From NCBI GenBank assembly GCA_022520065.1, contig GCA_022520065.1_3942.1: a stretch of 64,000 nucleotides of DNA. One strand, written 5' to 3'. Origin of the DNA: a phage. Within the stretch, counting starts at the first letter, position 1, and every line of letters starts with the position of its first letter. A program made the translations under genes and the position numbers. The notes under the pieces are model-generated. The model searched no databases. It was not told the DNA's origin and saw only the letters and a program-made list of their open reading frames with translations. This document shows positions 1,398-1,644 of this stretch, piece after piece.

Positions 1398-1411
1398 ATT
1401 TCAATAAAGTT

Positions 1412-1440
1412 GTTGACATTGAGATGTGACTACTTTATAG
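1412..1440 (+). promoter_or_regulatory. sigma70-like promoter TTGACA-N17-TATAGT inside the tRNA array
   Basis: Exact -35 hexamer at 1412-1417, 17-nt spacer, -10 TATAGT at 1435-1440. Confidence 0.55.
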
Positions 1441-1644
1441 TAACCTTAGTTTTCGTTGCGTAGCGTCTATTTTGCAAATTTAAAATAAATGCAAACGACA
1501 ATGTTTTTCTGGCAGTAGCTTGATAGGCTAAACACCAGTGAGGTCTTCCAATCCCTCATCAAAGAATTTGGCGTACTAGCCCACGGTATGATTAATAAGG
1601 TGGGCATCTTTAAGGGCTTTCTAAGAGAGTCTTTAAAGATTAAT

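Follow-up and report, generated by a model that had tools for sequence, protein, structure and literature searches.

A predicted phage RNA related to the mRNA-like domain of tmRNA and carrying a 5′ domain antisense to the host tmRNA

The window analysed here, a stretch of 64,000 nucleotides (nt) from contig GCA_022520065.1_3942.1, belongs to a Felix O1-like phage (Felixounavirus) that shares 99.6% identity with Escherichia phage HY02. Its first 5.2 kb carries 26 transfer RNA (tRNA) genes on the plus strand, as called by ARAGORN. We were interested in the gap of this array located between tRNA-Ile (1322-1397) and tRNA-Arg(UCU), in which an initial annotation had described a promoter followed by some 200 nt devoid of tRNA. 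Indeed, ARAGORN and Rfam found no tRNA, no transfer-messenger RNA (tmRNA) and no other family at threshold in 1398-1644. Comparative analysis nevertheless identifies in this interval a conserved and structured RNA gene on the plus strand, referred to below as the phage RNA. In its 3′ two-thirds, both the sequence and the layout are homologous to those of the tmRNA mRNA-like domain, and this part evolves as if a tag reading frame were decoded. The 5′ third mirrors that region of the host tmRNA in antisense, and evolves as if pairing with it were maintained. The features of the locus are as follows.

1413-1418, plus strand: −35 hexamer TTGACA, kept in Felixounaviruses
1436-1441, plus strand: −10 hexamer TATAGT, separated from the −35 hexamer by a 17-nt spacer
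1448-1475, plus strand: 5′ antisense domain AGUUUUCGUUGCGUAGCGUCUAUUUUGC, reverse complement of host tmRNA nt ~77-105
1476-1490, plus strand: linker and resume-codon context AAAUUUAAAAUAAAU, with U at −5 and A at −4
1491-1526, plus strand: tag frame GCA AAC GAC AAU GUU UUU CUG GCA GUA GCU (ANDNVFLAVA), then UGA (1521-1523) and a second in-frame stop, UAG (1524-1526)
1509-1538, plus strand: hairpin resembling tmRNA helix 5 (H5), with outer stem CUGG...CCAG and inner stem UAGCUU/AGGCUA
1539-1571, plus strand: pseudoknot 2, UGAGG (1539-1543)/CCUCA (1554-1558) and CCAA (1548-1551) with UUGG (1568-1571)
1572-1605, plus strand: pseudoknot 3, CGUAC (1572-1576)/GUAUG (1586-1590) and GCCCAC (1579-1584) with GUGGGC (1600-1605)
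1606-1640, plus strand: 3′ hairpin ('hairpin box'), 16 bp, −17.4 kcal/mol, z = −5.4
1645-1721, plus strand: tRNA-Arg(UCU), found by ARAGORN and Rfam

The predicted TTGACA-N17-TATAGT promoter of the initial annotation is present and conserved; its true coordinates are 1413-1441, one base higher than those first given. It fits 11 of 12 consensus positions and is the top-scoring of 17 promoter-like sites in 1-6000. Such sites are not enriched as a class in that region (17 found, 12.5 +/- 3.1 expected), and the weight of this promoter therefore rests on its conservation. In other phages, a sigma-70-type promoter ends 7-12 nt upstream of GTTTTCG in 28 of 79 distinct upstream contexts, and unrelated phages have their own TTGACA-N17-TAGATT promoter at an equal distance from the phage RNA. 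The predicted starts thus lie 0-5 nt upstream of GUUUUCG in three unrelated sequence contexts, namely the Felix type (TTGACA-17-TATAGT), the swi2-like type (TTGACA-17-TAGATT) and the promoters of loci L051 and L091. From the 7-12 nt distance to GTTTTCG, the transcript is expected to begin at or within ~5 nt of GUUUUCG, which leaves no space for an acceptor strand. In the window, the spacing predicts a start at A1448/G1449. On the other side, cleavage by RNase P at the 5′ end of tRNA-Arg would leave a 3′ end at 1644, and we place the end of the RNA there on the basis of this site and of the 3′ hairpin. The predicted transcript, 1448-1644, is therefore a phage RNA of ~197 nt with its own near-consensus sigma-70 promoter. 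The two hairpins that had been noticed in this stretch exist. The energy of the 3′ one was matched by none of 200 shuffles, and we regard it as an empty version of the arm-insert-arm cassettes found 3′ of the phage RNA in other phages. The TTTGCA/TGCAAA hairpin pairs 1471-1476 with 1490-1495, and its 3′ arm overlaps the resume codon of the tag frame. As a separate observation, in about one third of the Felixounavirus matches (for example phage finno, L001, ~2615-2705) an insertion of 89 nt follows the TATAGT −10 box and precedes the GUUUUCG start, and thereby parts the promoter from the phage RNA.

We then looked at how widespread this element is. With 1398-1644 as the query, blastn matched 596 phage records, of which 254 match at least 80% of the length of the 247-nt interval; 223 records are at least 95% identical to the interval, promoter included. 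A core (~1482-1606) is found at 71-87% identity in phages outside Felixounavirus that are otherwise unrelated to the window phage. They are Ackermannviridae (Det7 and other 157-kb phages), Schitoviridae or N4-like phages (Pollock, St11Ph5), 46-60 kb siphoviruses of Klebsiella, Escherichia and Salmonella (swi2, VLCpiS10a), and Ounavirinae of Erwinia and Hafnia. A second query raised the total to at least 700 phage records and added P1 as well as Serratia and Aeromonas phages, so that the carriers include Felixounavirus, Ackermannviridae, N4-like phages, T1-like phages and P1. A pattern scan of IMG/VR gave at least 120 matches, and the same pattern occurred in 2 of 185,579 species-representative bacterial genomes. 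With blastn, the 5′ domain was detected in 652 of 5,426 complete E. coli genomes (~12%), mostly on plasmids of ~91-115 kb, the size range of P1-like phage-plasmids, with which they are identified by size only; the chromosomal copies presumably lie in prophages. This spread over phages, prophages and plasmids, together with the near absence from bacterial genomes, indicates that the gene belongs to phages and phage-derived elements and is not a bacterial ssrA variant.

At the loci that we inspected, the match falls in unannotated sequence or under a 'hypothetical protein', and tRNA genes are often, not always, nearby. ARAGORN found a tRNA within −700 to +900 of the phage RNA at 52 of 130 loci and none at the other 78, and the tRNAs that follow the phage RNA differ (Arg, Ser, Met, Asn). 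The copy in P1 (L131, AF234172) spans ~1487-1700 of the locus, that is, 68,885-69,100 of the record, and specifies the tag ANDDLMMVAA. It occupies the C1-controlled ban leader: the annotated 'dicF-like region' ends in a terminator immediately 5′ of the phage RNA, and tRNA-Asn and tRNA-Thr lie on its 3′ side. The detailed P1 record has no annotation for this RNA.

The first line of evidence concerns the tag frame. The tag encoded by E. coli tmRNA is ANDENYALAA. In the 103 distinct copies of the phage RNA, a GCA resume codon with its upstream context opens a frame of 10 codons followed by a stop without exception (TAA in 84 copies, TGA in 17, TAG in 2). Twelve tag variants occur, all of the form AN[DE]x.[FYV]L[AMI][AV]A, such as ANDDVVLMAA, ANEEMYLAVA and ANDEQFLAVA. 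The last codon is an alanine codon GCN for which all four synonymous forms are in use. The stop codon has changed into another stop at least four times independently (in the Felix lineage and at L118, L014 and L028), and not once into a sense codon among the 103 copies; by our own calculation, four random single-base changes would all keep a stop with a chance of ~(2/9)^4 = 0.002. The tags of P1, of Erwinia phage Pistou (ANDAQFLAVA) and of Serratia phage 3M (ANDNAFLMAA) obey the same scheme. Upstream of the frame, all aligned copies have AUAAAU|GCAAACGA (ATAAAT|GCAAACGA in DNA), a motif that the search pattern included. The U at −5 and the A at −4 are equal to U85 and A86 of E. coli tmRNA, which are known determinants of frame choice (cf. 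PMC2481249). Rfam points to the same place. The phage RNA gives no tmRNA match at gathering level in the window. Below threshold, the tmRNA model (RF00023; 11.6-15.2 bits, gathering threshold 47) repeatedly matches around the resume codon, both in the window and in five unrelated phages. For the window and swi2, model positions 83-140 align, with high posterior probability over the resume region; the matches in the other four phages tested are weaker and fall at the same place.

The second line of evidence is the fold. The plus strand of 1442-1644 folds better than shuffled sequences (z = −3.83, 0/200), and the structure model was tested on an alignment of 67 sequences (A2). The H5-like hairpin holds the stop codon at its tip, on the last base of the inner stem and the loop, as helix 5 does in tmRNA. 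Its outer stem is 99.6% paired, with a switch from G-C to A-U in 21 of the 67 sequences. In pseudoknot 2, in which a CCRR loop faces a downstream YYGG, helices 5 and 6 are 99.7% and 98.9% paired, and each contains two pairs changed on both sides (UA/CG and GC/AU; CCGA/UCGG, CCAG/CUGG and CCAA/UUGG). In pseudoknot 3 (consensus CGCAN/NUGUG with GCCC/GGGC), helix 7 is 99.4% paired and exists in C-G, G-C and U-A variants, and helix 8 covaries and has lineage-specific expansions. Its linker, AUUAAUAA in the window and GAUUAAUAA in the consensus, is almost invariant. A G.U pair of helix 7 is present in all 67 sequences, which fixes the strand as plus. Taken one by one, the helices of H5 and of the two pseudoknots are 88-99.7% paired; helices 3, 5, 6 and 7 reach at least 98.9%, and in each of them one or two pairs show changes of both partners. 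Over the whole model, 91.5% of the cells are paired, as compared with 31-45% when the partners are slid by 1-3 columns, and 175 cells show changes on both sides, a number reached by none of 500 shuffles (63.5 +/- 5.7). In tmRNA, pseudoknots 1 to 4 (PK1-PK4) form a ring closed by helix 2; here, two downstream pseudoknots are present without helix 2. A PK1-like stem, GUUUU/GAAAC, was rejected, as it shows no covariation and is missing from the Felix type.

The 3′ pseudoknot module exists in two unrelated sequence types that share the same architecture, GGUCUUCC...GAUUAAUAA and GAGUCGUCC...GUAUUAGRAA, the second being that of P1 and of the Serratia copies. Near-identical 5′ halves can bear either module (Bp4, L135, 560-690, versus St11Ph5, L006, 2000-2130). 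This exchange shows recombination within the phage RNA gene.

The defining feature of tmRNA is not found in this molecule. ARAGORN, a T-arm scan and Rfam detected no acceptor stem, no T-arm, no CCA and no helix 2 in the phage RNA. Without a tRNA-like domain (TLD), it can neither take alanine nor enter the ribosome alone, and for the same reason the standard finders (ARAGORN, Rfam) miss it. ARAGORN reported no tmRNA in the window and a single one at the 130 loci (−700 to +900), in swi2 (L003, 2116-2490). This call is spurious: it borrows a tRNA-Met, its tag AKAVRLRKCSFRCGECAG is implausible, and it lies 110 nt downstream of the real tag frame. Annotation pipelines based on ARAGORN could report this false tmRNA and miss the real frame.

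The third line of evidence concerns the 5′ domain. Its antisense part comprises the first 28 nt in the window type and ~33-46 nt in other lineages, and overall it covers host tmRNA nt 67-107, that is, the 3′ strand of PK1, the A-rich linker, U85 A86, the resume codon G90CA and the first five or six host tag codons. This host segment, taken from the ssrA sequence of NZ_CP126948, reads GUAAAAAGCCGC AAAAAAUAGUC GCA AAC GAC GAA AAC UA. In local alignments, the reverse complement of the Felix 5′ domain matches E. coli ssrA with z = 6.1, and those of the seven lineages tested align to ssrA nt 67-106 with z = 5.7-12.8; in each case none of 300 shuffles did as well. RNAduplex predicts for the Felix domain a duplex of 24 bp with host 76-107 (−27.3 kcal/mol). 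All 51 distinct 5′ domains have their optimal duplex at one and the same host site, with 24-44 bp and −25 to −49 kcal/mol; dinucleotide shuffles match the observed energy 0-6 times in 200. Pairing of the 5′ domain with the downstream part of its own RNA is much weaker (−13 to −28 kcal/mol). Nucleotides 97-106 of E. coli tmRNA (ACGAAAACUA, codons D-E-N-Y) are exactly complementary to the invariant 5′ motif UAGUUUUCGU.

The way in which the lineages differ is informative. They diverge in sequence and are each still complementary to the host in a register of their own: GCGAC|UUUGCGG in the main type, GCGAUUA|UGCGG in St11Ph5, GCGAUUUUUGCGG in L091 and GCGUCUAUUUUGC in Felix. Several substitutions keep a wobble pair: opposite U105, UAG is replaced by UGG, and opposite G90 and U88, GCGAC is replaced by GUGGC or GCGGC. 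GUUUUCG is invariant in the aligned copies, and codons 3-6 of the phage frame itself vary and never restore GAAAAC. When the Felix RNA is folded alone in silico, its first 7 nt stay unpaired, and its antisense arm is engaged in an imperfect hairpin that takes in the first two bases of the RNA's own resume codon. Full-length cofolding limited to nested pairs favours the heterodimer by 6-8 kcal/mol, and the linker upstream of the phage resume codon is unpaired in the Felix cofold. A conserved, accessible seed complementary to a target, as expected of a base-pairing small RNA (sRNA), is thus found computationally. When the 5′ domain was searched against E. coli genomes, blastn returned prophage and plasmid copies and did not match ssrA because the antisense match is too interrupted. 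Three other approaches were discarded. RNAduplex on whole molecules forced everything into intermolecular pairs and was uninformative; a match in linker length (22 versus 23 nt, or 15 versus 13 nt) hinged on the chosen duplex end and was not robust; and a reading of the 5′ domain as homologous in sense to the tmRNA D-loop GGAUUCGAC was far outweighed by the antisense alignment.

Altogether, these results make us highly confident that the phage RNA is a tmRNA-derived RNA without a TLD. The separate small RNA that the initial annotation had offered as one possibility is thus borne out as a conserved, structured plus-strand gene rather than junk; that annotation did not include the tag frame of the tmRNA type, the pseudoknots or the complementarity to the host tmRNA. 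This complementarity further suggests that the phage RNA probably pairs with the host tmRNA in vivo. Since it cannot enter the ribosome alone, and since the only TLD and SmpB at hand are those of the host tmRNA system, we propose a docking followed by a template swap. According to this scenario, the exposed 5′ end UAGUUUUCGU would nucleate pairing with the single-stranded tag region of the host tmRNA, and the duplex would extend across the host resume codon into PK1. The same pairing would free the resume codon of the phage RNA from its internal hairpin. Stalled ribosomes would still be rescued by the host TLD and SmpB, and translation would resume on the phage template, so that a phage-specified tag would be added instead of ANDENYALAA. 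A weaker version of the scenario would be a plain block of host tagging. Our best explanation, offered tentatively, is a two-module tmRNA derivative that would dock on the host tmRNA, mask its template and offer its own. The swap of the tag template, taken by itself, is perhaps a little less probable than this explanation as a whole. In the most far-reaching formulation, phages of Enterobacterales would act in trans to reprogram the trans-translation of their hosts, by means of a toehold-like 5′ seed, and would both silence and replace the host tag template; this is possible and slightly more doubtful again.

Several points weigh against the docking and swap model. The 10-nt seed match is weak alone, as a match of at least 10 nt was found in 23 of 500 shuffles; the antisense domain of the Felix type is among the shorter ones (24 bp); and the duplex test for P1 gave only z = −2.2. 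The host comparison relied on the E. coli tmRNA sequence only, and pseudoknots, SmpB, S1 and the occupancy of the host tmRNA by ribosomes do not enter into the duplex and cofold energies. Codons 1-2 and 7 of the tag and part of codon 3 were set by the search pattern, so that the invariance of these positions is partly built in; the rest of the frame and the stop were free. Moreover, we know of no tmRNA-like template that acts in trans without a covalent or a helix-2/acceptor-stem link to a TLD, and the model would require the ribosome to load such a branch template.

The main rival of the docking and swap model is a pure anti-tmRNA RNA, in which 5′ pairing would inactivate the host tmRNA, by blocking its resume codon, unfolding PK1 or guiding cleavage by an RNase, and no phage tag would be made. 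The 3′ part would then only stabilise the RNA or titrate S1, RNase R or the SmpB tail. This scenario relies on the same antisense evidence and needs no new ribosomal mechanism. However, a decoy needs neither an open frame of 10 codons with a constant stop that undergoes only stop-to-stop changes, nor an invariant resume context of the tmRNA type with −5U and −4A, and a block of rescue would harm phage translation too. A conserved frame and stop speak for decoding rather than for a pure decoy, and we consider this scenario rather unlikely.

A coding piece of a conventional two-piece tmRNA, whose acceptor piece would be encoded elsewhere in the phage, is clearly less probable. Natural two-piece tmRNAs exist, the permuted-tmRNA model of Rfam (RF04321) reaches 29-31 bits (threshold 47) in the window and in St11Ph5, and some phages have T-arm hairpin cassettes or odd tRNA-like genes adjoining the phage RNA. 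However, the acceptor 5′ strand that is present in every coding piece, and that a two-piece or permuted tmRNA requires, is missing from an RNA that would start right at GUUUUCG. The match in the window (29.2 bits, 1339-1523) was rejected, as it borrows the complete tRNA-Ile as its 'acceptor piece', and none of the 130 loci yielded a real ARAGORN tmRNA call. Outside the called tRNAs, the 64-kb window contains two T-arm-like hairpins (at 944 and 1924), neither of which has G3.U70 or a link to the phage RNA. In other phages, cassettes with arms GGUAAGAGCAUU / AGUGCUCUUUCC surround variable inserts, some of them with T-arms. We considered the flanking arms (AGUGCUCUUUCC upstream, GGUAAGAGCAUU downstream) as an analogue of helix 2, an idea that placed the TLD in the neighbouring inserts, and rejected it. 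Arm covariation at L015 supports local hairpins, and no CCA or G3.U70 is present; Felix and P1 have neither the upstream arm cassette nor flanking T-arm cassettes.

Two further explanations are very unlikely. The stretch had been proposed to be a leader for the downstream tRNAs, in which case its conservation would reflect processing signals of a 5′ leader or spacer. Co-transcription with tRNA-Arg and the following tRNAs is probable in Felixounavirus, and tRNAs are found near the phage RNA at the 52 loci mentioned above. The sequence is equally conserved at the 78 loci without a nearby tRNA and in front of differing tRNAs, it has a covariation-supported structure of its own, and a leader role would leave the tag frame, the covariation of the pseudoknots and the antisense match without explanation; the proposal thus finds little room. 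Equally improbable is a selfish or relic cassette, that is, a tmRNA fragment captured, inverted, duplicated and spread through hairpin-arm recombination without any function. The mosaic distribution over unrelated phage families, the interchangeable 3′ modules of St11Ph5 and Bp4 and the setting among hairpin cassettes with conserved arms are all in keeping with it, but the compensatory changes in four helices, the strict maintenance of frame and stop, and a complementarity kept to the host tmRNA rather than to the RNA's own arm argue against it. Finally, a small protein on the minus strand can be practically discounted, as the initial annotation had done in seeing no plausible open reading frame (ORF): the sole notable ORF (46 amino acids, minus strand, 1467-1607), ATG-initiated and coincident with the conserved core, is broken or frame-shifted in homologues, whose longest frames of 28-51 codons lie in differing frames and give unrelated sequences, which refutes it, and the minus strand folds no better than shuffles (z = −1.18) and the invariant G.U pair is specific to the plus strand.

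The surroundings of the phage RNA contain other unusual units. 'Hairpin boxes' of the type UAAGGnUUCUUnCGAGAGUCCUUA recur in the tRNA array (762-791, 4103-4133, 2213-2302 and 1606-1640). The homologous arms of other phages (GGUAAGAGCAUU / AGUGCUCUUUCC) surround variable inserts, among them T-arm modules and a CCCUUAUGGGGCUUGGCUUAAAUGCA module that is shared, and these boxes may serve as sites of processing or as cassettes for recombination. Also located between the tRNAs is a second family of stem-enclosed cassettes with variable contents. Its four copies of ACAGAAGACCnnUUACAGCAA (230-257, 397-424, 786-813 and 875-902) can pair with nnGGUCUGG partners located 40-110 nt downstream (301-310, 456-465, 860-869 and 1006-1015). 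One stem-enclosed unit at 875-1018, AGACCGUU...AACGGUCU, folds like a circularly permuted tRNA and is called by neither ARAGORN nor Rfam: a T-arm, GAAGG-UUCGAUU-CCUUC (939-955), is followed by the acceptor 3′ strand ACUCGGC, which a 4-nt loop joins to the 5′ strand GUCGAGU and the D-arm (963-1005). At 1862-1946, ARAGORN missed a tRNA-like gene with the acceptor AUGGGAC/GUCCCAU-G-CCA, the T-loop UUCAACU and the anticodon loop CUCCAAA (CCA, Trp), whose stem is closed by a C.A mismatch; its Rfam score is only 23 bits, with the tRNA-Sec model. In St11Ph5 (L006), the phage RNA sits in a 1.9-kb non-coding island (1375-3265) that also contains an atypical 'tRNA-Ala(CGC)' without CCA and at least two ACCA-ending tRNA-like genes missed by ARAGORN (~2303-2367 and ~2371-2491).

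What would such an RNA mean for phage biology? Its carriers include Felix O1-type phages used in typing and therapy, Vi1/Det7-like Ackermannviridae, N4-like and T1-like phages and P1. Its antisense front end and tmRNA-like remainder suggest that many enterobacterial phages may tamper with ribosome rescue. Should the antisense module act as predicted, phages would be using an RNA directly against the main ribosome-rescue system of bacteria, which would be a new phage strategy. If the template is decoded, the phage RNA bears on the choice of the resume codon by the ribosome and SmpB, and on the need for a cis link between the template and the TLD; it also hints at a tool for simple re-tagging of rescued proteins in trans. 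If the swap is true, rescued ribosomes in infected cells or induced P1 lysogens would add a phage tag, ...LAVA or ...LMAA, with an altered SspB/ClpXP fate. The assembly would then be a natural three-part tmRNA, and the phage RNA the first viral RNA known to rewrite the host quality-control tag.

The known forms of tmRNA have been catalogued exhaustively as one-piece, two-piece, intron-bearing and TLD-only molecules. As far as could be found, a template-only derivative had not been reported: the literature that we searched contains no description of the phage RNA, and its six commonest tag strings occur in no searchable paper. Among small RNAs of phage tRNA clusters, the T4 species 1 and 2 RNAs (rnaC and rnaD) come to mind, and the initial annotation had drawn this parallel. 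It holds for the position, since these are also small RNA genes of unknown function in a tRNA cluster, and it does not extend to the sequence. Local alignment of rnaC and rnaD with the phage RNA or with tmRNA gave z no higher than 1.9, and neither Rfam nor ARAGORN found tmRNA in them. By eye, rnaC looks tmRNA-like ('GAUUCGAGG', 'UUAAUAACC'); its alignment was not significant against shuffles and this candidate was dropped. The phage RNA has more in common with the sRNAs of the DicF type found in phages and prophages, namely a predicted promoter of its own, a single-stranded conserved 5′ seed and an imperfect antisense match to a host RNA transcribed elsewhere. It differs from them in that the predicted target is a stable non-coding RNA instead of an mRNA, the complementarity extends over 24-44 bp, and a template module is added.

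With one-piece tmRNA (RF00023), the phage RNA shares the A-rich resume context with −5U/−4A, the GCA start, a 10-codon tag of the AN(D/E) type ending in alanine, the stop at an H5-like tip and the downstream pseudoknots. In contrast, an acceptor stem, T-arm, CCA and helix 2 are all missing from it, its downstream pseudoknots number two instead of three, its length is ~200 nt instead of 363 nt, and it bears a 5′ domain that is antisense to tmRNA itself. The coding piece of the two-piece tmRNAs (RF04321; alpha, beta and cyano forms) is likewise a tag template without the 3′ half of the TLD, and the phage RNA, too, would have to act through base pairing with another RNA. However, real coding pieces start with the acceptor 5′ and helix-2 strands and pair with a dedicated acceptor piece, whereas the pairing surface of the phage RNA is antisense to the mRNA-like domain of its partner, which would be a complete host tmRNA. 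Surveys of phage tmRNAs have found complete genes and the TLD-only form of mycobacteriophage DS6A, and no template-only form; a TLD-only molecule similar to that of DS6A has been reported to inhibit the endogenous tmRNA (PMC4131195, PMC11915505). The DS6A form, which is phage-borne, and the plastid tmRNAs that lack a coding sequence are, like the phage RNA, reduced tmRNA derivatives. The phage RNA is nevertheless the mirror image of the DS6A molecule: DS6A keeps the TLD and loses the template, and the phage RNA does the reverse.

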